Origin: an uncultured Chlamydiae bacterium
Lineage (GTDB): Bacteria; Chlamydiota; Chlamydiia; Chlamydiales; Parachlamydiaceae
Length of the DNA: 64,000 nt
Reading direction: 5' to 3'
NCBI GenBank assembly: GCA_963754655.1
Contig: CAVWGN010000001.1
Coordinates: 1,088,001-1,152,000 of the forward strand
Part shown: positions 5,479 to 56,824 of the stretch, piece after piece
How the letters are laid out: every line of letters starts with the position of its first letter
Numbering within the stretch: the stretch's first letter is position 1
Notes under the pieces: generated by a model
Told to the model about the DNA's origin: nothing
The model's database searches: none
Seen by the model: the letters and a program-made list of their open reading frames with translations, nothing else
Translations under genes and position numbers: made by a program

Positions 5479-6561
5479 ATGATTCCAATTATTACATTTT
5501 CAAATGATACTGATAAAATCCCACATTTAAAAAATTTAAGAGAAGGAGATAAGAGTGAAAAGGAAGAGTTGGAAACACAAGTTTCTGATTCTTTTCTAAA
5601 ACCTCCACGCAGTCCGCGGAAGATTAAATATTTGAGTTCTTCGCATAATTCTTTATTTTCCACTACTGAGTATGAGGAAACAAATAAAAACTCACTGACT
5701 AAAGCGTCAAATGAGTCTGAGTTAGAGCGTGATTTAAAATCCTTACGCAAAGTCACTAGAACTAAAAGCAAAATTAAGAAAGTCACATCAGACCAGATGT
5801 CTCTTTCTACTTCGGCACCGTCACCAAGTTTAAAAAAACAAACGACTCAACCCTTCAATTTTACAAATTTATTGAGTCCCTCAGTCATTAAAAAAGAAAA
5901 AGAAAAAGAAGTTTTGACTCCACGACAAACAGAATCGATAGCTTGTTCCAAAGATAAAAAAAAAGCTAAAAAGATTAAAGACACTAAATCTATGGAGAAT
6001 TTAGCATTAAAAATACCTCCCTTCTTTCGATATTCGCAAACAGTAGCAGAAAAAAAGAATCAAGATAGACACTCTTCAAATTCCACTCTATTTTCAAATG
6101 AACAAGAAATTTCCATTCAAACATTAAAAGAAATTTTAAGTCATAATCAACCTATTTCATTCAAGCAAATTTACCACATTACTTCTTTGCTAATACCATC
6201 TGGAGCTTATAATTATTTACATCTAATGTGCGAAGAAAAATATGCAGAAGAAAATATTGAGTTTCTATTTGATTATCTTCATTGGATTCATACCCAAGAA
6301 AATCAAGCTATTTTAAATCATGAAGTCCTTGAAGATTTGATTGAAAAATATATAAATAACGATACAGAGAAAACTATCAATATTGAAGGCAACTCGCGTT
6401 TGTTAGTTATCCAAGCTTTTAAGAATAAAAATTTCAATGAAGTTGCAAGACTCTTAAAGGAAATTAGTGAAATGATTTCATTGCTTCTTTGGCTAAATAT
6501 ATTTTCTGAAGCTTTTGCAGAAGACGAAACACAAGAATTAATTTTAAAATTCATTCTTTAA
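5479..6561 (+). CDS. Putative effector with S/K-rich N-terminus and C-terminal RGS-like domain
   Basis: CEEKYAEENIEFL...LIEKYINNDTEKTINIEGNSR resembles the RGS motifs E(F/Y)SEENIEFW and EVNID. Confidence 0.65.
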   Translation: MIPIITFSNDTDKIPHLKNLREGDKSEKEELETQVSDSFLKPPRSPRKIKYLSSSHNSLFSTTEYEETNKNSLTKASNESELERDLKSLRKVTRTKSKIKKVTSDQMSLSTSAPSPSLKKQTTQPFNFTNLLSPSVIKKEKEKEVLTPRQTESIACSKDKKKAKKIKDTKSMENLALKIPPFFRYSQTVAEKKNQDRHSSNSTLFSNEQEISIQTLKEILSHNQPISFKQIYHITSLLIPSGAYNYLHLMCEEKYAEENIEFLFDYLHWIHTQENQAILNHEVLEDLIEKYINNDTEKTINIEGNSRLLVIQAFKNKNFNEVARLLKEISEMISLLLWLNIFSEAFAEDETQELILKFIL

Positions 6562-12649: not shown

Positions 12650-15022
12650 TTAATTTTTCATGCCATTTTGTTGGGGTAACGCTAAAGCTTTTTTAAACAT
12701 AGCTGCAGCTTCCTGGAATTTTCCTTCCTGGCTTAAAGTTTTGGCATAATGGCTGACAGTAAAAAGATCTTGTTGTCCCCCAGGTAGATCTAAGGCTTTT
12801 TTAAATTCCGCTGCAGCCTCCACGAGTTTCCCTTGTAAGCGTAAATTTTCGGCATGGCGGCTAACAAGGAAAGGATATTGCTGTGCATTGGTTAGAGCTA
12901 GAGCTTTTTTAAATTCAATTTCAGCTTCCTCGAATTTTTCTTGCTGGCTTAAAGTTTCGGCATAACTGCTGATAATGCTAAGATTTTGTTTTCCTTGAGG
13001 TAGAGCTAAAGCTTTTTTAAATTCAATTGCAGCTTCCTCGAATCTTTCTTGTCGGCGTAAATTCATTGCATAACTTATGACAGAGAAAAAATCTTGCTGT
13101 CCTTGAGGTAGAGCTAGAGCTTTTTTAAATTCAGCTTCAGCTTCCTTTAATTTTCCTTGTAGGCTTAAAATTTGCGCATAACCGCTGACAACTCCAAGAT
13201 CTTGTTGTCCTTGAGGTAAAGCTAAAGCTTTTTTAAATTCCGCTGTAGCCTCCTTAAATTTGCTTTGCCCACCTAAAGTTGCGGCATAACCGTTGACAGC
13301 GAAAGGAAATTGCTCTCCATGAGGTAAAGCTAAAGCTTTTTTAAATTCAATCGCAGCCTCTTCGAGTTTTCCTTGCTGGCGTAAAGTTTCCGCATAACCA
13401 CTGACAGGAAAAAGAGATTGCTGTCCATGAGGTAAAGCTAAAGCTTTTTTAAATTCAATTGCAGCTTCCTCGAGTTTTCCTTGCTGGCGTAAAGTTTCCG
13501 CATAACCACTGACAACGATAAGATCTTGTTGTGCTTGAGGTAGAGCTAGAGCTTTTTTAAATTCAGCTTCAGCCTTTTTGAGTTTTCCTTGTCGGCTTAA
13601 CGTTTCTGCATAACGGCTGATAGCGAAAAGATCGTGCTGTCCTTGAGGTAGATCTAGAGCTTTTTTAAATTCAGCTTCAGCCTCCTCTAATTTTCCTTGC
13701 TGAAGTAAATTTTCGGCATAAACCCTGATAGTGAAAAAATCTTCTTTTCCTGTATTCATCGCTAAAGCTCTTTTAAATTGAGCTTCAGCTTCCTTAAATT
13801 TTCTTTGCTGATATAACGTTACTGCATAACGACTGATAGTGAAAAAGTACTGTCCATTAGATAGTGCTAAAATTTTTTTAAATTCAGCTGCAGCTTCCTC
13901 GACTTTTCCTTGCTGACGTAGATTTTCGGCATAACGACTGGCAGTGAAAAAGTATTGCATTCCTTGAGCTAGAGCTAAAGCTCTTTTAAATTGAGCTTCA
14001 GCTTCCTTAAATTTTCCTTGCAGACGTAAATTTTCGGCATAACCACCAATAATGAAAGAATTTTCTTGTCCTTTAGGTAGAGCTAAAGCTCTTTTAAGCT
14101 CAACTTCAGCTTCTTGGAATTTTTCTTGCTGGTTTAAAATACGCGCATAACGCCCAATAGTAACACTATCGTGTTTTCCTTCAGGTAAAGCTAAGGCTTT
14201 TTTAAATTGAGCAACAGATTCCTCAATTTTTTTTTGTCGATATAAAGTTTCTGCATAACCACGGACAGTGAAAAAATCTTGTTGTCCATTAGGCAGAGCC
14301 AAAGCTTTTTTAAATTCAGTTGCAGCTTGCTCTAACCGTTTTTGCCGGCTTAACATGTCGGCGTAACGGCTGACAGTGAAAAGATCTTGCTTTCCCTGAG
14401 GTAGGTCCAAAGCTTTGTTAAATTGAGCTACAGCTCGCTTAAAGATTGCTTGTTGACTTAAAGTTGCAGCATAATGGCTGACAGTGAAAAAATGTTGGTT
14501 TCCATCAGGTAGAGCTAAAACTTTTTTAAATTCTGCTGCCGCCTTTTCAAGTTCCCCTTGCTGGCGTAACGTCTCAGCATAACGGCTAACAGTGAAAAGA
14601 TTTTCCTGTCCTTTAGGGAGAGCTAAAGCTTTTTTAAATTCAGTTGCAGCTTCCTCAAAATTTCCTTGCTGGCGCAACGTTTCGGCATAACGGCTGACAG
14701 TGAAAAGATCTTGCTGTCCGTGAGATAGGGCTAAAGCTTTTTTAAATTCAGCTTCAGCTTCCTGAAGTTTTCCTTGAAGGCGTAAAGTTTCAGCATAACG
14801 ACTGGTAGAGACAAGATTTTGCAGAGCCATGGCTTGTGTTTGTACTTGGAAAATTGTATTATTATTTAGAAGCTGATGGCGCTCTAATAAATTAGACCTG
14901 AATTCTTGAGAAGGTTGCTCTGTTTGATGATGTATTTTTTGTCTTTTTTTAGGAGGCTCAAAAGATATTTCATAATCATTTGAATTAAACCGTGGCGAAT
15001 TAACAAAAGAAATAGAGTTCAT
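12650..15022 (-). CDS. 36-aa TPR-like repeat protein (20 repeats) with N-terminal NLS-like motif
   Basis: Repeat DLFTVSRYAETLRQQGKLEEAAAEFKKALALPQGQQ; PPKKRQK near the N-terminus. Start moved to 15022 (MNSISF) by alignment with the paralog and an AAGG RBS. Confidence 0.85.
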   Translation of the reverse strand: MNSISFVNSPRFNSNDYEISFEPPKKRQKIHHQTEQPSQEFRSNLLERHQLLNNNTIFQVQTQAMALQNLVSTSRYAETLRLQGKLQEAEAEFKKALALSHGQQDLFTVSRYAETLRQQGNFEEAATEFKKALALPKGQENLFTVSRYAETLRQQGELEKAAAEFKKVLALPDGNQHFFTVSHYAATLSQQAIFKRAVAQFNKALDLPQGKQDLFTVSRYADMLSRQKRLEQAATEFKKALALPNGQQDFFTVRGYAETLYRQKKIEESVAQFKKALALPEGKHDSVTIGRYARILNQQEKFQEAEVELKRALALPKGQENSFIIGGYAENLRLQGKFKEAEAQFKRALALAQGMQYFFTASRYAENLRQQGKVEEAAAEFKKILALSNGQYFFTISRYAVTLYQQRKFKEAEAQFKRALAMNTGKEDFFTIRVYAENLLQQGKLEEAEAEFKKALDLPQGQHDLFAISRYAETLSRQGKLKKAEAEFKKALALPQAQQDLIVVSGYAETLRQQGKLEEAAIEFKKALALPHGQQSLFPVSGYAETLRQQGKLEEAAIEFKKALALPHGEQFPFAVNGYAATLGGQSKFKEATAEFKKALALPQGQQDLGVVSGYAQILSLQGKLKEAEAEFKKALALPQGQQDFFSVISYAMNLRRQERFEEAAIEFKKALALPQGKQNLSIISSYAETLSQQEKFEEAEIEFKKALALTNAQQYPFLVSRHAENLRLQGKLVEAAAEFKKALDLPGGQQDLFTVSHYAKTLSQEGKFQEAAAMFKKALALPQQNGMKN

Positions 15023-15154
15023 AACAAACCTTGTTAAGTTTTTTTTAGTGTCGTTTATTATAGTAAATTCATGCATTTCAATCTAGAGCTATTTAAATCA
15101 AAAAAAAGCCGCTTTTTTTAAATATATTTTATAATTATTTACTACTTTATTAGG

Positions 15155-15338
15155 TAGGCGTTTTTACTAAAAACATGCGACACTGGTAGCTCTTCAGGCT
15201 GAATAACATAACCTATTCATAACCAAAGCGTTGCTCTGTTAGTGTACTTTTAGACCTGCAATCTACTATTGCAAGCTGCGATTTACCGCATCAGTCTGAA
15301 GAGCTGCCAGTGTAAGGGATTTTAGTAAAAATACCTAC
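15155..15338. repeat. REP-like palindromic element on the axis of the inverted duplication
   Basis: TTTTTACTAAAA...CACTGGTAGCTCTTCAGGCTGA (15161-15202) is inverted at 15291-15331; same family as 4715-4780 and 61021-61080. Confidence 0.75.
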
Positions 15339-15477
15339 TTAATAAACTAGTAAATAATTATAAAATATATTTAAAACGCAAAAGCAATTTTTTTATTATT
15401 TAAATAACCCTAGATTGAAATGTGTAGATTCAATATAATACACAAACTTAATAAAAATTTGCTAAAAAGGTTTTGTT

Positions 15478-17739
15478 ATGAACTCTAATTCTTTTGTTAA
15501 TTCATCGCGTTTTAATTTAAATGTTTATGAAGAATCTCTTGAGCCTCCTACAAAAAGACAAAAAACACATCATCAAACAGAGCAACCTTCTCCAGAATTC
15601 AGGTCTAATTTATTAGAGCGCCATCAGCTTCTAGATAATACAATCTTCCAAGTACAAACACAGGCCTTGGCTCTGCAAAATCTTGTCTCTACCAGTCGTT
15701 ATGCTGAAACTTTACGCCTTCAAGGAAAACTTCAGGAAGCTGAAGCTGAATTTAAAAAAGCTTTAGCCCTATCTCAAGGACAGCCAAATCTTTTCACTGT
15801 CAGCCGTTATGCCGAAACACTACGCCAGCAAGGAAATTTTGAGGCAGCTGCAACTGAATTTAAAAAAGCTTTAGCTCTCCCTAAAGGACAGGAACATCTT
15901 TTCACTGTTAGCCGTTATGCCGAAACGTTACGTCAGCAAGGGGAACTCAAAAAGGCGGAAGCAGAATTTAAACAAGCTTTAGCTCTACCTGATGGAAGGC
16001 GGCATTTGTTCACTGTCAGCCATTATGCTGAAACTTTACGTCAACAAAAAGAATTCAAACTGGCTGTAGCTCAATTAAAAAAAGCTTTGGATCTACCTTA
16101 TGGACAGCAAGATCTTTTCACTGTCAGCCGTTACGCCGAAATATTACGCCGGCAACAACGGTTAGAGCAATCTGCAACTGAATTTGAAAAAGCTTTGGCT
16201 TTGCCTAATGGACAACAAGACTTTTTCACTGTCGGTGGTTATGCAGAAACTTTACGTCAGCAAAAAAAACTTGAGGAATCTGCTGCTCAATTTAAAAAAG
16301 CCTTAGCTCTACCTGAAGGAAAACAGGATAGTGGTACTATTAGTCGTTATGCGACTACTTTAAACCGACAAGGAAAATTCCAAGAAGCTGAAGTTGAATT
16401 TAAAAGAGCTTTAGCTCTATCTAAAGGGAAAAAAGATGTTATCACTATCAGCGGTTATGCCGAAAATTTACGTCAGCAAGGAAAATTGGAAGAAGCTGCA
16501 ACTGAATTTAAAAAAGCTTTAGCTCTACGTCTAGGAAATCAATACTTTTTCGTTACCAGCCGTTATGCATTAACGTTACACCAGCAAGGAAAATTGGAAG
16601 AAGCTGACGTTGAATTTAAAAGAGTTTTAGCTACGAATCCAGGAAAAAAAGATTTTTTCACTATCAGCAGGGTTTATGCCATAAATTTATTTAAGCAAAG
16701 AAAATTCGAGGAAGCTGCAGCGGAATTTAAAAAAGCTTTAGCTTTACCTCAAGGACAGCACGATCTTTTTGCCATCAGCATTTATGCCGAAACTTTAAAC
16801 ATGCAAGGAAAATTTGAAGAGGCTGCAACTGAATTTAATAAAGTCTTCGCTCTGCCTGGTGGACAGCAATGTCTTTTTGCCGTCAGCAATTATGCTAAAA
16901 ATTTACGCCTACGAGGAAAACTCGAAGAAGCGATAGATGAATTTAAAAAAGCTTTAGCTCTGCCTGGTGGACAGCAAGATCTTTTTGCTGTCAGCAATTA
17001 TGCCGAAACTTTACGCCTGCAAGGAAAATTTGAAGAAGCTGAAACTGAACTTAATAAAGCCTTAGCTTTGCCTGGCGGACAACAAAATCTTTTCACTGTT
17101 ACTCTTTATGCTGAAATTTTACGCCTACAAGAAAAATTCACAGAGGCTGCAATTGAATTTAATAAAGCCTTAGATTTGCCTGGTGGAAAGCAATACCTTT
17201 TCACTGTCAGTAGTTATGCTGAAAATTTACGTCTGCAAGGAAAACTCCAGGAAGCTGAAGCTGAATTTAAAAAAGCGTTAGATTTACCTTACGGACAGCA
17301 GCATTTTTTCGCTGTCAGTCGTTATGCCGCAACTTTATATGAACAAGGAAAATTTGAAAAGGCTGTTGTTGAATTTAAAAAAGCATTAGCTCTTCCTCAA
17401 GGCTATCAAGATTTTGCCACTATCGCTACTTATGCTGAAATTATACGCCAGCAAGGAAAATTCGCAAAAGCTGCAGCTGAATTTAAAAAAGCTTTAGCTC
17501 TACCTGTAAACGTAGAAATGCAGCCCTATCTTTTCGGTGTCAGCCACTATGCCGAAACGTTACGCCAACAAGGGAAACTCGAGGAGGCTGCGGCTCAATT
17601 TAAAAAAGCTTTAGCGTTACCTCAAGGACAAAAAGATCTTTTCGTTATCAAACGTTATAGCCAAACTTTAAGACAGCAAGGAAAATTCGAAGAGGCTGCA
17701 ATGGAATTTAAAAAAATTTTAGATCTGCAGAAAATTTAA
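15478..17739 (+). CDS. 36-aa TPR-like repeat protein (19 repeats), paralog of 12650-15022
   Basis: Near-identical N-terminus (PPTKRQK) and the same repeat consensus. Confidence 0.85.
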   Translation: MNSNSFVNSSRFNLNVYEESLEPPTKRQKTHHQTEQPSPEFRSNLLERHQLLDNTIFQVQTQALALQNLVSTSRYAETLRLQGKLQEAEAEFKKALALSQGQPNLFTVSRYAETLRQQGNFEAAATEFKKALALPKGQEHLFTVSRYAETLRQQGELKKAEAEFKQALALPDGRRHLFTVSHYAETLRQQKEFKLAVAQLKKALDLPYGQQDLFTVSRYAEILRRQQRLEQSATEFEKALALPNGQQDFFTVGGYAETLRQQKKLEESAAQFKKALALPEGKQDSGTISRYATTLNRQGKFQEAEVEFKRALALSKGKKDVITISGYAENLRQQGKLEEAATEFKKALALRLGNQYFFVTSRYALTLHQQGKLEEADVEFKRVLATNPGKKDFFTISRVYAINLFKQRKFEEAAAEFKKALALPQGQHDLFAISIYAETLNMQGKFEEAATEFNKVFALPGGQQCLFAVSNYAKNLRLRGKLEEAIDEFKKALALPGGQQDLFAVSNYAETLRLQGKFEEAETELNKALALPGGQQNLFTVTLYAEILRLQEKFTEAAIEFNKALDLPGGKQYLFTVSSYAENLRLQGKLQEAEAEFKKALDLPYGQQHFFAVSRYAATLYEQGKFEKAVVEFKKALALPQGYQDFATIATYAEIIRQQGKFAKAAAEFKKALALPVNVEMQPYLFGVSHYAETLRQQGKLEEAAAQFKKALALPQGQKDLFVIKRYSQTLRQQGKFEEAAMEFKKILDLQKI

Positions 17740-40624: not shown

Positions 40625-42274
40625 TCAAGACAATCTCTTGATCTTTTTTAGGCTTGTATCTGCATATTTAAGAGCATAGGCATTTTTCTGAACGGCAGCC
40701 AAGACAATCTCTTGATCTTTTTTAAGACTTGCGTCTGCATATTTAAGGGCCATGCCATCTTGCTGAACGGCAGCCAAGACAATCTCTCGATCTTTTTTAA
40801 GACCTTCCTCTGCATATTCAAGAGCAATGCCTTTCTGTTGAACAGCTGCCAATACAATGTCTGAATCTCTTTTAAGGCTTGCATCTGCAAATAAAAGAGC
40901 CTGGCCAGTTTGCTGAACAGCAGCCAGGACAATTTCTGAATCTTTTTTAAGGATTTTATCTGTAAACTGGAGAGTCCAGCCATTTTGCTTAACGGCAGCC
41001 AAGACAATCTCTCGATCTTTTTTAAGACTTGCATAGGCATATTGAAGAGCATAGCCATATTGTTTGACAGCAGTCAAGACAAAATTTCGATCTTTTTGAA
41101 GGCTTTCATCTGCAAATTTAAAAACATTGATACCTACACGATATTTTTGCTTAACGGCAGCCAAGACAATCTCTCGATCTTTTTTAAGGTTTCTATGTGC
41201 ATATTGAAGAGCATAGCCATATTGCATAACGGCAGCTAAAACAATCTCTCGATCTTCTTTAAGGCTTTCATGCGCCACTTGAAGAGCCAAGCCATATTGC
41301 TTAACGGCAGCCAAGACAATTTCCCGATCTTTTTTAAGGCTTTCATCTGCATATTGAAGAGCCCCACCATGTTTCTTAACGGCGATCAAGACAATCTGTC
41401 GATCTTTTTTAAAGCTTTCACCTGCATATTGAAGAGCGTATCCATACTCCTGAACCGCAGCTAAGACTATCTCTTGGTCTTTTTTAAGGTTTTCATTTAT
41501 GCATAAAAGAGCGCTGCCATTTTGCTGAACGGCAGCCAAGACAATCTCTCGATCTTTTTTAAGGCTTTCATCTATATCAAAAACAGAACGTCCAAAACAA
41601 TGAGCAACTTTAATCAAAAGTTTTTTATCGTTAAAATTGGAAGAGTTTTTAAGTGTGGAGATGACAGAGCTTTCTGCTTGCTGCCATGTTTGGCCTCGAC
41701 CACCATGGTAAACTTTTTGGATAAAGTCATTTTTGATAACATTTAATCTCTCGACATTCGTAGCTAATGCAAGAGAATTTAAAATAGACAATTGCTCTTC
41801 AGTCATACGTTGGATATTTTCATTGGCGCTCTTTTTGCAAACTTCAAGATTCCAAGAATAGCGATCCAAAAGAGAAAGAAATAAACTCTTTGGGTGAAAT
41901 AATTTTGAATCAATCATTAATAATTTTTCAAAGCCATGGATACTATGGACCCAATCAATCAATTTAAATTCTTGAGATGTAAAATGATTCTTTTTTTCAG
42001 TTGCAATACACTCTTGGAGATTCATAATGGTGGATCGATCTTTATCTTTAAGTTGAAAAAGGACTTGCACCAAAGAAATGCAAGGAGTCTTCTCAAGAAC
42101 ATTTTTCCATTTTTTACAAGTGAGCAAAATAGAAGAAAGATCGCGCAAAGATTGGTTTTGGTTCACCACTTGATCAAAAATATTTCCTAACACATCCTTA
42201 AGAAGTAATGTGTCTAATAAAGTTTCGTTTGAAGTGTTTTGAATTATTTTTGAATGAAAGGCAAGAGTTTGCAT
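40625..42274 (-). CDS. F-box-like + DUF4116 25-aa repeat protein, C-terminus frameshifted/truncated
   Basis: LLLKDVLGNIF...LSSILLTCKKWKNV (F-box-like); about 12 repeats ALQYADESLKKDREIVLAAVKQYG; last repeat slips frame (KKIKRLS). Confidence 0.8.
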   Translation of the reverse strand: MQTLAFHSKIIQNTSNETLLDTLLLKDVLGNIFDQVVNQNQSLRDLSSILLTCKKWKNVLEKTPCISLVQVLFQLKDKDRSTIMNLQECIATEKKNHFTSQEFKLIDWVHSIHGFEKLLMIDSKLFHPKSLFLSLLDRYSWNLEVCKKSANENIQRMTEEQLSILNSLALATNVERLNVIKNDFIQKVYHGGRGQTWQQAESSVISTLKNSSNFNDKKLLIKVAHCFGRSVFDIDESLKKDREIVLAAVQQNGSALLCINENLKKDQEIVLAAVQEYGYALQYAGESFKKDRQIVLIAVKKHGGALQYADESLKKDREIVLAAVKQYGLALQVAHESLKEDREIVLAAVMQYGYALQYAHRNLKKDREIVLAAVKQKYRVGINVFKFADESLQKDRNFVLTAVKQYGYALQYAYASLKKDREIVLAAVKQNGWTLQFTDKILKKDSEIVLAAVQQTGQALLFADASLKRDSDIVLAAVQQKGIALEYAEEGLKKDREIVLAAVQQDGMALKYADASLKKDQEIVLAAVQKNAYALKYADTSLKKIKRLS

Positions 42275-54742: not shown

Positions 54743-56824
54743 ATGACAACCATTCGTAAAACTCTTATAGATATTCTTGAATCTCAAGCTTTTGATCGGT
54801 TAGAGCCTTTCAAACAATTCGCTGTATGGAAAAGCTTTACGCAAGATGAACGTGTCCTTTTGGCTCGCCTGTTGGTAATGCAGGGAGCTCATCAATTGGC
54901 GCAAGGTAATCATCAAGCACTAGAAAGCTTTGACGCTGCGGGACAAATCTCTTCAAATGCTCCCGACATTTTATATCAGCAAGGCAGTGTTTTAAGTGGT
55001 TATCGAGAAAATATCAGATGTTTAACTCTTGCTTGTCAATCACTTGCGCGTGCTTTACAGCAAGATCCATTCCTTTTTAAAGCGTGGTATCTCCGTGCAG
55101 AAGTTTTGATTGATATTGGACTTTTTGAAGGAGAAGCTTCCTATTTTGTGGAGGCGCATCAATGCTTTGAAAGAGCTTATTCTATTCTTGAGAAAGCCGA
55201 AGAGCCGTTTCGTCAAGAGGATTTTTTTTGGAAATGGGGCTTATGCTTAGCTTCTTTGGGTAAAGTTTCAGGAGAACCTTTAGATTTTCATCGGTCAATT
55301 GAAAAATATCGTCATTGTTATGAACTGGGCTGCCAAGAAGCAAAGTTCTTTAATGATTTTGGGCATAGTTTAGCCGATTTGGCTTCTCTTTTAGATAAAC
55401 CAGAATACTTTGCCGAGGCCCTTATCCTTTTTAATCGAGCCGTTCGTCAAGATTCCCATCCCTTTGATGGATGGTATAATCAAGCCTGCTGCATTCAGAG
55501 TTTAGCGGAATACAAGATCGATGAAAAATTATTAGAGCAAGCTGACTACAGTTTTCAAAGAGCTGCTGAAATTAATCCTCAACATAGCCAGGTTTGGCTT
55601 AAATGGGGACAGCTTGAAATGACAATTGGAAAGGTAAAACGGGATCAGCACAGGATAGAAGCGAGTTTGTTGAAATTTGCTCATGCGCATCAATTAGAGC
55701 TTGGACATCCTCAAGTTTTAAGTAGTTGGGCAGAAGCTGAACTTTTTCTAGGTGCTCAGGAAGATAGATTAGAGCTCATTCACTCTGCTAGGCTCAAGAT
55801 TTTAAATAGCTTAGAAATTCAGCCAGAAGATCCCAATGCATGGTATTTATATGGATCTTGTTTGAGCGAATTAGGACGCTATTTTAACGATGAGGATTAT
55901 TATAACCAAGCAATCGAAAAGTTTCAGTTTGGCCTTTCTCTCACCCGTCAACACCCTCTTCTTTGGTATGGATTGGCTCTCGCGCACTTTGCGTTAGGAG
56001 AGTTAACGGAACAGCAAGCTTTATTTGAAAAAGCAGTCCGTTATTGCTCACGTGTCATCGAATGTGGAGGAGAGGGATTTGCTCAATTTTGGAATGATTG
56101 GGGAGTTGCTCTATTGAAGCTTGCAGAAATGACGCAGCAAGCTTCGCATGTGGAAATGGCAATTGAAAAATTTGAACGTGCTCTTAAACAGCCACTTCAG
56201 GCTGGAGAAGGAGAAGATGTTGATTTAGAATGGATTTATAACTACGGCTGTGCATTTGATCTTTTAGGAGATTTAAAAGAGGAACCTTCTTATTTTGAAA
56301 AGGCAGTTCAAGTCCTGACTCAAATTCTTCAGTTAGATCCCAATTACATTTTAGCACGTTATAATTTAGCACTTGCTTTATCACATTTAGGCGAGGCTAT
56401 GTTTGAAGTTGAGTTTTATCATAAGGCGATTGAACATTTTCAAATTCTCTTAGATCAAAATCCAGAAGATGACATGATTCATTTAGATTTTGGAATGTCT
56501 TTAACCAATCTAGGACTCCTGATTCATGATGCTCATCATCCCGAACGTTCTCAGACGCTTTATCGTCAATCAGAGAACCATCTCATGCAGGCAGCAGCAT
56601 TAGGCAATACACAAGCTTATTATCAGCTGGCTGGTCTGTATTCCATTACAGGACACAATGACCCTGCCATGCATTATCTCGAGCGCGCACAATTTTGCGG
56701 CACATTGCCTAGCATTGACGATTTGTTGCATGATGAGTGGCTGGAGAATTTGAGGCAAACACCCTCTTTTCGACAATTTATCAATGAGCTATCAAGTCAG
56801 CAGCAATCAATGGATGATAAATAG
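54743..56824 (+). CDS. TPR-repeat protein
   Basis: Multiple W..WG..L...A...F..A patterns; C-terminal AYYQLAGLYS...AMHYLE. Confidence 0.8.
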   Translation: MTTIRKTLIDILESQAFDRLEPFKQFAVWKSFTQDERVLLARLLVMQGAHQLAQGNHQALESFDAAGQISSNAPDILYQQGSVLSGYRENIRCLTLACQSLARALQQDPFLFKAWYLRAEVLIDIGLFEGEASYFVEAHQCFERAYSILEKAEEPFRQEDFFWKWGLCLASLGKVSGEPLDFHRSIEKYRHCYELGCQEAKFFNDFGHSLADLASLLDKPEYFAEALILFNRAVRQDSHPFDGWYNQACCIQSLAEYKIDEKLLEQADYSFQRAAEINPQHSQVWLKWGQLEMTIGKVKRDQHRIEASLLKFAHAHQLELGHPQVLSSWAEAELFLGAQEDRLELIHSARLKILNSLEIQPEDPNAWYLYGSCLSELGRYFNDEDYYNQAIEKFQFGLSLTRQHPLLWYGLALAHFALGELTEQQALFEKAVRYCSRVIECGGEGFAQFWNDWGVALLKLAEMTQQASHVEMAIEKFERALKQPLQAGEGEDVDLEWIYNYGCAFDLLGDLKEEPSYFEKAVQVLTQILQLDPNYILARYNLALALSHLGEAMFEVEFYHKAIEHFQILLDQNPEDDMIHLDFGMSLTNLGLLIHDAHHPERSQTLYRQSENHLMQAAALGNTQAYYQLAGLYSITGHNDPAMHYLERAQFCGTLPSIDDLLHDEWLENLRQTPSFRQFINELSSQQQSMDDK

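Follow-up and report, generated by a model that had tools for sequence, protein, structure and literature searches.

Divergent paralogous genes for long TPR superhelix proteins with a 36-residue unit, possibly host-directed, in an environmental Parachlamydiaceae chlamydia

Positions 12650–17739 of the window, the whole 64,000-nucleotide stretch of DNA that was analysed, hold two neighbouring genes in divergent orientation, A and B. Their products are paralogous superhelical TPR proteins, and the organism is an environmental chlamydia of the Parachlamydiaceae. The features of the locus are as follows.

12650..15022, minus strand: gene A, 790 aa from Met19; N-terminal module and 20 repeats of 36 residues
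12650-15076, minus strand: mechanical ORF of gene A, 808 aa
15478..17739, plus strand: gene B, 753 aa; N-terminal module and 19 repeats, the final repeat incomplete at the C-terminus
12681..14822, minus strand: tandem array in gene A, 19.9 copies with a period of 108 bp
15675..17726, plus strand: tandem array in gene B, 18.9 copies with a period of 108 bp
14822..15022, minus strand: non-repetitive N-terminal module of A, from Met19 to residue 85
14936..14956, minus strand: basic motif PPKKRQK in A, at residues 41-47 within the 808-aa ORF
15544..15564, plus strand: PPTKRQK basic motif of B, residues 23-29
15023..15477, no strand: intergenic region between the divergent genes, in which the sequences upstream of A and B mirror each other, with a short central palindrome
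13866..14862, no strand: left arm of an inverted duplication of 997 nt, covering A1 to about A9
15635..16631, no strand: right arm of the same inverted duplication, covering B1 to about B9

Met19 (coordinate 15022) is the most likely translation start of gene A, because the regions upstream of Met19 in A and Met1 in B are homologous, including a TATAAT and an AAGG element, and because the B counterpart of the upstream ATG of A is out of frame; counted from Met19, KRQK of A lies at residue 26. Scans of the locus gave 9 consensus promoter sites against 11.9 expected from shuffled sequence, i.e. not above chance, and 6 terminators against 6.0 expected from shuffling.

Tandem Repeats Finder detected a 108-bp period in both genes, with 74% matches and a score of 1781 over the array of A, and 72% matches, 2% indels and a score of 1473 over that of B. 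Tyr-Ala anchors number 20 in A and 19 in B, in agreement with the 20 and 19 repeats counted in a preliminary description of this DNA, and they are spaced by 36 residues with the exception of single spacings of 35, 37 and 39. The scaffold, described there as nearly fixed, is indeed so: Y7, A8, L11 and L28 occur in 38 of the 39 repeats each, Q14 in 37, A20 and F24 in 36, and A27 in 34. Positions 8, 20, 24 and 27 of a TPR unit are occupied by signature residues, small or large, and a Pro lies near position 32; the repeats of A and B carry this signature at the four positions, with a Pro at position 31 in 29 of 39. Their unit is, however, 36 rather than 34 residues long by three measures, namely anchor spacing, DNA period and self-similarity lag. 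The core motif does not occur in the window outside 12650–17739, and a TPR-encoding ORF at 54743–56824, considered as a further copy, proved to be unrelated (best lag 41).

Profile searches likewise identify both proteins as TPR-type. Pfam TPR_12 matched A and B with E-values of 7e-48 and 3.6e-48 (161.2 and 162.1 bits; cut-off 30.1), and TPR_2 with 1.2e-44 and 1.1e-46 (147.1 and 153.5 bits; cut-off 27). The comparison of TPR with PPR models proposed in the preliminary description was thus one-sided, with TPR models at 1e-44 to 1e-48 and no match to PPR models: neither PPR nor Sel1 families were among the best 25 of 28 and 32 Pfam families (A and B, whole proteins) or in two-repeat segments at E ≤ 10, a setting at which the HMMER filters still discard most matches above about E 0.1. 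No domain other than TPR was found in A or B with Pfam, NCBIfam and PADLOC models, bearing out the claim that a catalytic domain is absent; none of the PADLOC defence-system models matched at the locus. NCBIfam yielded partial matches to PilW, BcsC, MamA, Tgl and LcrH/SycD, all below their cut-offs.

An AlphaFold2 model of B, built from an alignment of 8 sequences, had a mean pLDDT of 88.4; 562 of its 753 residues score at least 90, helix pairs recur regularly throughout, and the 19 or 20 units are modelled as a single continuous solenoid. In this model each repeat consists of two 13-residue helices joined by a 3-residue turn, with a loop of 7 residues leading to the next, so that the predicted unit is a canonical TPR plus two residues in the inter-repeat loop, repeated uniformly every 36 residues; the suggestion of a TPR with a longer loop therefore stood, on both profiles and predicted fold. 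The best sequence match among solved structures was the TPR region of O-GlcNAc transferase (E 4.4e-12), in an alignment that requires 2-residue gaps in every repeat and places the variable pair of residues in front of the Tyr at TPR positions 5 and 6. The top Foldseek matches for the B model were long TPR or HAT scaffold complexes, with the best local match to 1w3b (TM 0.83 normalised to the target, rmsd 3.7 Å, 404 columns), and none of the matches listed is described as a PPR, PUF or TALE entry. The superhelices of O-GlcNAc transferase and SPINDLY (1w3b, 7ntf, 7y4i) share with A and B a long unbroken TPR run, and O-GlcNAc transferase is closest to them both by sequence among solved structures and by local superposition. 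They differ in that A and B are bacterial, have a 36- instead of a 34-residue unit, contain no catalytic domain and lack the Asn ladder at position 6 with which O-GlcNAc transferase grips substrate peptides. Sel1-like repeats, TPR relatives of 36–44 residues known from intracellular and host-associated bacteria, also exceed 34 residues; A and B are set apart from them by the lack of a Sel1 match and by the confinement of the extra residues to the inter-repeat loop. A structure annotated as 'conserved hypothetical secreted protein' (1ouv) was a weak sequence match (E = 0.014).

Variation between repeats was reported to centre on the two residues before the Tyr. All 15 residue pairs listed for this site were found and none besides, and the list for the other variable site (D/N/Y/H/F/S/C) was exact. 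The term 'hypervariable di-residue' nevertheless overstates the case, as the pair contributes 8.7% of the total column entropy compared with 5.6% if variation were even. The first residue of the pair is Ser in 28 of 39 repeats and the pair SR accounts for 15 of 39, while position 6 is R in 17 repeats, G in 8, H in 4, S in 3, V and N in 2 each, and I, L and T in 1 each (n = 39); one of the two RV pairs, in B10, reflects a one-residue insertion (SRVYA). Entropy exceeds 1.5 bits in 15 of the 36 repeat positions, the highest value (3.11 bits) being that of the loop residue in P-x-G. Mapping of the variable sites to the groove fared better: mean entropy is 1.91 bits at groove positions, compared with 1.08 bits at all other positions (p = 0.0014) and 1.11 bits on the convex face of helix B (p = 0.0047; both Mann-Whitney), where faces were assigned by canonical TPR numbering as given in the excerpted text of PMC1261162 and not by solvent exposure in the model. 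Variability is thus enriched on the canonical concave ligand-binding face instead of being evenly spread over the surface. According to the same excerpted text, the canonical concave positions of ligand-binding TPRs are more variable than the others (PMC1261162), and the entropy pattern of A and B agrees with that of ordinary peptide-binding TPRs.

A code in which the solenoids read nucleic acid, one repeat per base, in the manner of PPR proteins or TAL effectors, was raised in the preliminary description, and we regard it as very unlikely. Several features recall such proteins. Both comparators are built of tandem helical repeats of about 34–36 residues, and A and B have numerous uniform repeats; TAL effectors, which are delivered by type III secretion and imported into the host nucleus, carry a nuclear-import motif, and a nuclear-import-like motif is present in A and B. 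In PPR proteins, with their 35-residue unit, two code residues specify the base, and the Ser at position 5 in 28 of 39 repeats together with Asp or Asn just N-terminal to helix A in 25 of 39 recalls the residue types of that code. At an overall pI of about 9.2, the proteins carry net charges of +13 (A) and +11 (B) on the helix-A face. Against this, the concave set is near neutral once the residues preceding helix A are included (0 for A, +4 for B), variation extends over 15 of 36 columns in place of two adjacent residues, the period is 36 and not 33–35, no PPR model matched among the best 25 families or in two-repeat segments at E ≤ 10, and the listed structural neighbours are protein-binding TPR scaffolds. 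Repeat-to-repeat DNA identity outside the duplicated part is only about 61–85%, whereas TAL repeats are near-identical, and A and B carry their motif at the N-terminus and no evident activation domain. When mutual information between variable columns was assessed by permutation, 7 of 28 column pairs had p < 0.05; as repeats A1–7 and B1–7 are duplicates, the result does not speak for a code. We favour instead a model in which the concave face formed by helix A binds at least one protein ligand, probably in the form of extended stretches of polypeptide, with repeat-to-repeat variation concentrating at TPR positions 5/6, 9, 12 and 13 and at the residues just before helix A. A role as modular binder, as originally proposed, fits the predicted fold with its matches to long TPR scaffolds.

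Repeats A1–A7 and B1–B7 are 99, 94, 90, 81, 94, 92 and 86% identical at the DNA level, consistent with the reported collinearity of about seven repeats; beyond repeat 7, identity falls to 61–84%, as between any two repeats. The collinear part is covered by the 997-nt inverted repeat (89% complementary), and 184 of 201 aligned bases of the N-terminal modules are identical. The common promoter, N-terminus and first seven repeats may have arisen from a recent inverted duplication or from gene conversion. Since A and B have the first seven repeats in common and differ in the other 12–13, they are likely to have one interaction in common and others that are distinct. Between the collinear parts of the two intact ORFs, dN/dS is 0.67 at dS 0.13, which speaks for real genes; πN/πS across repeats is 0.55. 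Both values show weak constraint and are compatible also with a protein of little importance. Taken further, this would make A and B fast-evolving, weakly constrained and decaying products of repeat expansion and inverted duplication that serve no specific ligand, and the 91% identity of A13 and A14, which implies a recent duplication of repeat units, as well as the very small size of the family in public data, would accord with it. We assign such an origin a small probability, as neither ORF is broken or loses its frame over 2.3 kb even though repeat length changes three times, the core packing positions are near-invariant with variation biased to one face, and the N-terminal motif is retained in L001, a relative at 51% identity.

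Relatives of A and B were found in few records, all chlamydial or chlamydia-like metagenomic. Self-similarity lag analysis detected the 36-residue period only in A, B, L001 and P0004, and these four proteins are soluble, without a hydrophobic segment. The six closest relatives (L002a–c, P0003, P0259 and P0272) have a best period of 34, clear for P0003 and L002a–c and weak for P0259 and P0272, together with an N-terminal hydrophobic segment located directly past the site aligned to the basic motif or near the N-terminus. P0003 and the L002 genes, initially considered as 36-residue relatives, were rejected on this basis. These membrane-anchored TPR proteins come from the same bacterial group where the source is named and have the same YAETLRQxGK core and helix A and B consensus as A and B; they differ in period and hydrophobic segment and, in the 4 examined, lack K[KR]x[KR] at the aligned site. 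L002a–c are three tandem genes in a Parachlamydiaceae MAG, and the N-termini of L002a–c and P0272 (MNSIS, MNTIS, MNSIF, MMINSI) resemble the starts of A and B. P0003 carries an extra C-terminal region of 590 residues; an OTU-like protease was considered there and dismissed, with no Pfam match at E ≤ 1 and no usable Atlas match. The window and L001 do not share a conserved gene order. A text search of the literature for the string YAETLR found nothing.

The basic motifs PPKKRQK and PPTKRQK are present in A and B as described, and K[KR]x[KR] occurs at residues 24–28 in 4 of 4 soluble 36-residue proteins, which are homologous and hence do not represent four independent observations, and at the aligned site in 0 of 4 membrane-anchored relatives. 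In the B model the motif lies within residues 1–36, which have pLDDT below 50 and are predicted to be disordered, and the remainder of the N-terminal module is modelled as one long helix. The N-terminal modules of A and B matched no Pfam family at E ≤ 10, and that of L001 gave weak matches (E about 0.04–0.06); a search of the 72-residue module against 1.84 billion representative proteins, of low power with so short a query, gave 0 matches at E ≤ 0.001.

In the membrane-anchored relatives the aligned site reads LRQK, VQQK or SQQK and is simply the flank of a hydrophobic helix, so the motif could be a leftover inherited from such a flank instead of a signal for import, and A and B could be unexported TPR adaptors acting inside the bacterium, e.g. 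in envelope or secretion-complex assembly. The N-terminal hydrophobic segment of all six closest relatives, suggesting an ancestral membrane role, argues for this, as do the sub-cut-off partial matches to bacterial TPR assembly factors and the frequency of K[KR]x[KR] in the window (11 of 38 other ORFs, in 3 of 38 at residues 15–40). We nonetheless consider an intrabacterial adaptor rather unlikely. Loss of the membrane segment, gain of K[KR]x[KR] and the change to a 36-residue unit coincide in one sub-lineage, which points to a changed location or role; A and B diverge fast; and a family with few records and unconserved gene order is unlike core bacterial machinery.

To our knowledge, every known chlamydia resides inside a eukaryotic cell. 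From this lifestyle, from the absence of a signal peptide or membrane segment in A and B, and from a disordered polar N-terminus whose start resembles those of the relatives, we infer export to the host, most likely by type III secretion, after which the KRQK-type motif, conserved within this disordered stretch, may drive nuclear import. That A and B are host-directed TPR scaffold proteins, possibly nuclear, with secretion, import and ligand all putative, is our preferred reading, which we hold to be about as likely right as wrong. A bolder extension would see the 36-residue unit as a new TPR-derived class of solenoid in chlamydial symbionts that passes into the host nucleus and there reads a drawn-out linear polymer, either a nuclear polypeptide of repetitive or disordered kind or a nucleic acid, repeat by repeat; we give it a slim chance, and the same applies to its corollary that specificity comes from groove residues (5/6, 9, 12, 13 and the helix N-cap), with the common seven repeats serving as an 'address' and the remaining repeats setting the two paralogues apart.

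Proteins of comparable character have been described in related organisms. In the excerpted text of Domman et al. 2014 (PMC4209131), Parachlamydiaceae have large TPR and LRR families thought to act in the host, including NEX2 (F-box plus TPRs) and PEX2 (TPRs plus a CHAT domain), and families of this type range from 1 to 39 repeats. As portrayed there, NEX2 and PEX2 are, like A and B, repeat-rich, fast-diverging and from amoeba-associated chlamydiae, with a proposed action in the host (PMC4209131). F-box and CHAT were absent from the best 25 of 28 and 32 Pfam families of A and B. A literature search combining 'nucleomodulin' with 'tetratricopeptide' gave no chlamydial case among 8 papers, as judged from the listing.

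Repeat proteins without a known role number in the hundreds in environmental chlamydiae, from which very few nuclear-acting effectors are known. The A/B sub-lineage, soluble after loss of the membrane segment, gain of the nuclear-import-like motif and change of repeat length, provides a compact testable case in which one half of the protein is common to the paralogues and the other half different. If both export and nuclear import hold, A and B would be candidates for a TPR-type nucleomodulin, a bacterial effector that is exported and accumulates in the host nucleus, from an amoeba symbiont; if neither holds, they are two more TPR proteins. The highly regular 36-residue unit may also interest repeat-protein engineers.

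The window contains no tRNA genes that would mark an island, and the A/B locus shows no composition anomaly. Elsewhere the window encodes a eukaryote-like RGS domain, and the neighbouring FabI gene is 78–82% identical to genes of Parachlamydiaceae MAGs and Candidatus Protochlamydia, its best named matches.

The two divergent paralogous genes A and B are built of tandem 108-bp units, each encoding a 36-residue repeat (A1–A20 and B1–B19, numbered from the N-terminus).

Repeat genes in the window
12650-15076, minus strand, ORF A, 808 aa
15478-17739, plus strand, ORF B, 753 aa

Tandem Repeats Finder resolved the 108-bp period into 19.9 copies in A (74% matches) and 18.9 copies in B (72% matches), and the 20 and 19 Tyr-Ala anchors lie 36 residues apart, the only departures being one interval each of 35, 37 and 39 residues. 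The near-fixed repeat scaffold given in the preliminary description is correct, with Y7, A8, L11 and L28 each present in 38 of the 39 repeats, Q14 in 37, A20 and F24 in 36 and A27 in 34; its 15 residue pairs preceding the tyrosine were all found, with none besides, and its list of D, N, Y, H, F, S and C at the other variable site is exact.

Pfam TPR models match A and B at 1e-44 to 1e-48, far exceeding the cut-offs, whereas PPR and Sel1 models were neither among the best 25 Pfam families for A or B nor matched at E <= 10 by two-repeat segments, so that the comparison of TPR with PPR profiles suggested at the outset comes out for TPR. Among solved structures, O-GlcNAc transferase gives the best sequence match, through its TPR region (4.4e-12); in this alignment the variable pair falls on TPR positions 5 and 6, and each repeat requires a two-residue gap. 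The AlphaFold2 model of B, which rests on an eight-sequence alignment, has a mean pLDDT of 88.4, with values below 50 for residues 1-36 including PPTKRQK, and its unit comprises a helix of 13 residues, a turn of 3, a second helix of 13 and a loop of 7. Using Foldseek against the PDB, the best local fit was 1w3b (TM 0.83 normalised to the target, rmsd 3.7 Å); all 44 matches listed are complexes with TPR or HAT scaffold subunits (Paf1C, SKI, IFT-A, O-GlcNAc transferase, SPINDLY, TTC7B, APC/C, NatA, spliceosome), and none of these 44 is described by its entry title as PPR, PUF or TALE. Given the profile matches, the O-GlcNAc transferase alignment and the modelled fold, the repeat is a TPR solenoid with two additional loop residues per unit, as the proposal of a TPR with a longer loop had anticipated, and the TPR scaffold nature of A and B is nearly certain. 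Both proteins share the profile, signature residues and fold of the TPR family, but depart from its 34-residue unit in having one of 36; they lack the features tested for the PPR, TAL, Sel1 and NEX2/PEX2 families. Their core motif was not found in the papers searched.

The repeats had been described as carrying a hypervariable di-residue before the tyrosine. This holds only in part. At TPR position 5, two residues before Tyr, Ser occurs in 28/39 repeats, and 15/39 pairs are SR; the two positions together account for 8.7% of the summed column entropy, with more than 1.5 bits at 15 of the 36 columns. Entropy is highest at the middle residue of P-x-G in the loop (3.11 bits), followed by TPR position 6 (2.46–2.49 bits), the helix N-cap and position 3 (2.2 bits each) and positions 9, 12 and 13 (about 2.0 bits). 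Scaled to the mean synonymous diversity, per-position nonsynonymous diversity is greatest in the loop (1.35) and at position 6 (1.14), with an overall piN/piS of 0.55. It is very improbable that A and B are a weakly constrained by-product.

According to Magliery and Regan (PMC1261162), TPR positions 2, 5, 9, 12, 13, 33 and 34 are variable and concave-facing, and HOP also uses position 6. Defined in this way by canonical TPR numbering, the concave set averages 1.91 bits of entropy in A and B; all remaining positions average 1.08 bits, the remaining non-core positions 1.39 and the exposed helix-B face 1.11 (Mann-Whitney p = 0.0014, 0.0079 and 0.0047, respectively). Variability is not spread evenly over the repeat positions; it is concentrated on the canonical binding face of the TPR superhelix, in agreement with the suggestion that the variable sites map to the groove. 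TPR grooves that bind a ligand typically vary in this manner, and the pattern does not amount to a two-residue code. The positive charge of the helix-A face alone (net +13 in A, +11 in B) and the pI of about 9.2 of the whole proteins stand beside a concave set that, including residues before helix A, carries a net charge of 0 (A) and +4 (B), and these charges favour neither a peptide nor a nucleic-acid ligand. With variation over 15 columns, so small a share of it in the pair and no PPR match among the best 25 families or in two-repeat segments, it is very improbable that A and B read a PPR/TALE-like nucleic-acid code; they would rather bind protein ligands along the groove.

The N-terminal modules of A and B are identical at 184 of 201 aligned bases, and A1–A7 and B1–B7 share 99, 94, 90, 81, 94, 92 and 86% DNA identity, in order. 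Weaker traces of collinearity follow at A10-B9 (82%) and A11-B10 (80%), beyond which identity drops to 61–84%, the level between any two repeats; the proposed collinearity over about seven repeats followed by divergence is thus borne out. The common part forms a 997-nt inverted repeat (89%), with a dS of 0.13 and a dN/dS of 0.67 between the collinear parts. The pattern fits recent duplication in inverted orientation, or a gene-conversion tract at the 5' end, combined with free repeat turnover farther 3', as in A13 and A14 (91% identical). The paralogs may have one interaction surface in common (repeats 1–7) and differ in the remainder. The most likely start of A is Met19 (coordinate 15022, 790 aa), because the stretch before A-Met19 is homologous to that before B-Met1, the homology taking in a TATAAT box and an AAGG ribosome-binding site, and the upstream ATG of A has an out-of-frame counterpart in B. 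The intergenic region 15077-15477 is mirror-symmetric, the upstream sequences of the two genes being homologous, and has a short palindrome at its centre, CACTGGTAGCTCTTCAG ... CTGAAGAGCTGCCAGTG. Within the repeats (38 repeats; 12681-14822 and 15675-17726), codons Q14, F24, K25 and K26 have piS values of 0.000–0.013 against a mean of 0.435, whereas the Lys codon at position 16 has 0.42; the near-nil values at the GAATTTAAAAAAGC core could reflect biased codon usage or homogenisation of the DNA itself.

Very few close relatives emerged. In searches of 5.8 billion proteins these were P0003 and P0004, below which scores fall away to generic TPR proteins (792 and 414 bits with a three-repeat profile, next match 197); scanning genomes contributed L001 (51% identity) and L002, a tandem array of three genes (L002a-c) in a Parachlamydiaceae MAG.

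Relatives of A and B by best repeat period and N-terminus
Soluble group: A, B, L001, P0004; 36 residues; hydrophobic segment absent; K[KR]x[KR] in 4/4, at residues 24-28
Anchored group: P0003, L002a-c (clear), P0259, P0272 (weak); 34 residues; hydrophobic segment close to the N-terminus

For P0259 and P0272, the self-similarity lag scores are 0.34 and 0.08. None of the 19 generic TPR matches tested had 36 as its best period (34 in 18, 42 in P0264). Six of eight aligned N-termini start with M-N-[STP]-[ILN]-[SF] (MNSIS, MNSNS, MNTIS, MNSIF, MNPLS), the exceptions being L001 (MSSIP) and P0003 (MASYV); P0272 begins with MMINSI. The three paralogs at L002 (9665-16872; 970, 651 and 633 aa) have a YAETLRQ core with a 34-residue period, and in each a hydrophobic segment follows the MNSIS-, MNTIS- or MNSIF-type start. 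P0003 combines a hydrophobic N-terminus, about 17 TPRs of 34 residues and a 590-residue C-terminal region (residues 661-1250) that matched no Pfam family and gave no usable Atlas match. The closest relative, L001 (3661-5355, 564 aa), lies between small ORFs and a putative gene read from its sequence as penicillin-binding-protein-like; Kdp and FAD-oxidase genes are not adjacent, so the family lacks a conserved gene neighbourhood.

The KRQK motif (PPKKRQK in A, PPTKRQK in B) possibly mediates nuclear import, an idea favoured by its position in a predicted disordered N-terminus, its retention in L001 (PTKRPAKRQRTDQ), where little else of the N-terminus is conserved, and its coupling to the loss of the membrane segment. 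Against it, K[KR]x[KR] also occurs in 11 of 38 other window ORFs (3 at residues 15-40, 1 with Pro close upstream), and the aligned site in anchored relatives (LRQK, VQQK, SQQK or EKWK; K[KR]x[KR] in none of the four aligned) merely flanks a hydrophobic helix; A, B, L001 and P0004 are homologous, so the motif was not observed independently four times. The odds are somewhat against nuclear import. Of the eight papers listed that mention both nucleomodulins and tetratricopeptides, none is on chlamydiae.

Judging by chlamydial biology and by what is published on Parachlamydiaceae repeat families (PMC4209131), A and B may be delivered into the host cell, export being about as likely as not. Their neighbours are ordinary bacterial genes, encoding an ABC transporter, FAD oxidase, KdpD, KdpB and a PRK06300-type FabI whose best named matches are Parachlamydiaceae MAGs and Candidatus Protochlamydia (78–82%; another record, 87%). 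A bacterial adaptor that is not exported is a less likely alternative. A TPR scaffold with protein ligands, host delivery and possible nuclear import would, taken as a whole, have an even chance of being right.

Another TPR protein in the window (54743-56824, plus strand, 693 aa) was rejected as a relative, having no YA-x-[TN]-L motif and a best self-similarity lag of 41. In a 360-aa ORF (5479-6561, plus strand), Pfam identifies an RGS (regulator of G-protein signalling) domain of eukaryotic type (3.4e-5; 24.7 bits, cut-off 23.9); the ORF has no NCBIfam match and is a candidate for a further host-directed protein. A 549-aa ORF (40625-42274, minus strand) is built of 10 DUF4116 repeats (Pfam 9.3e-158).
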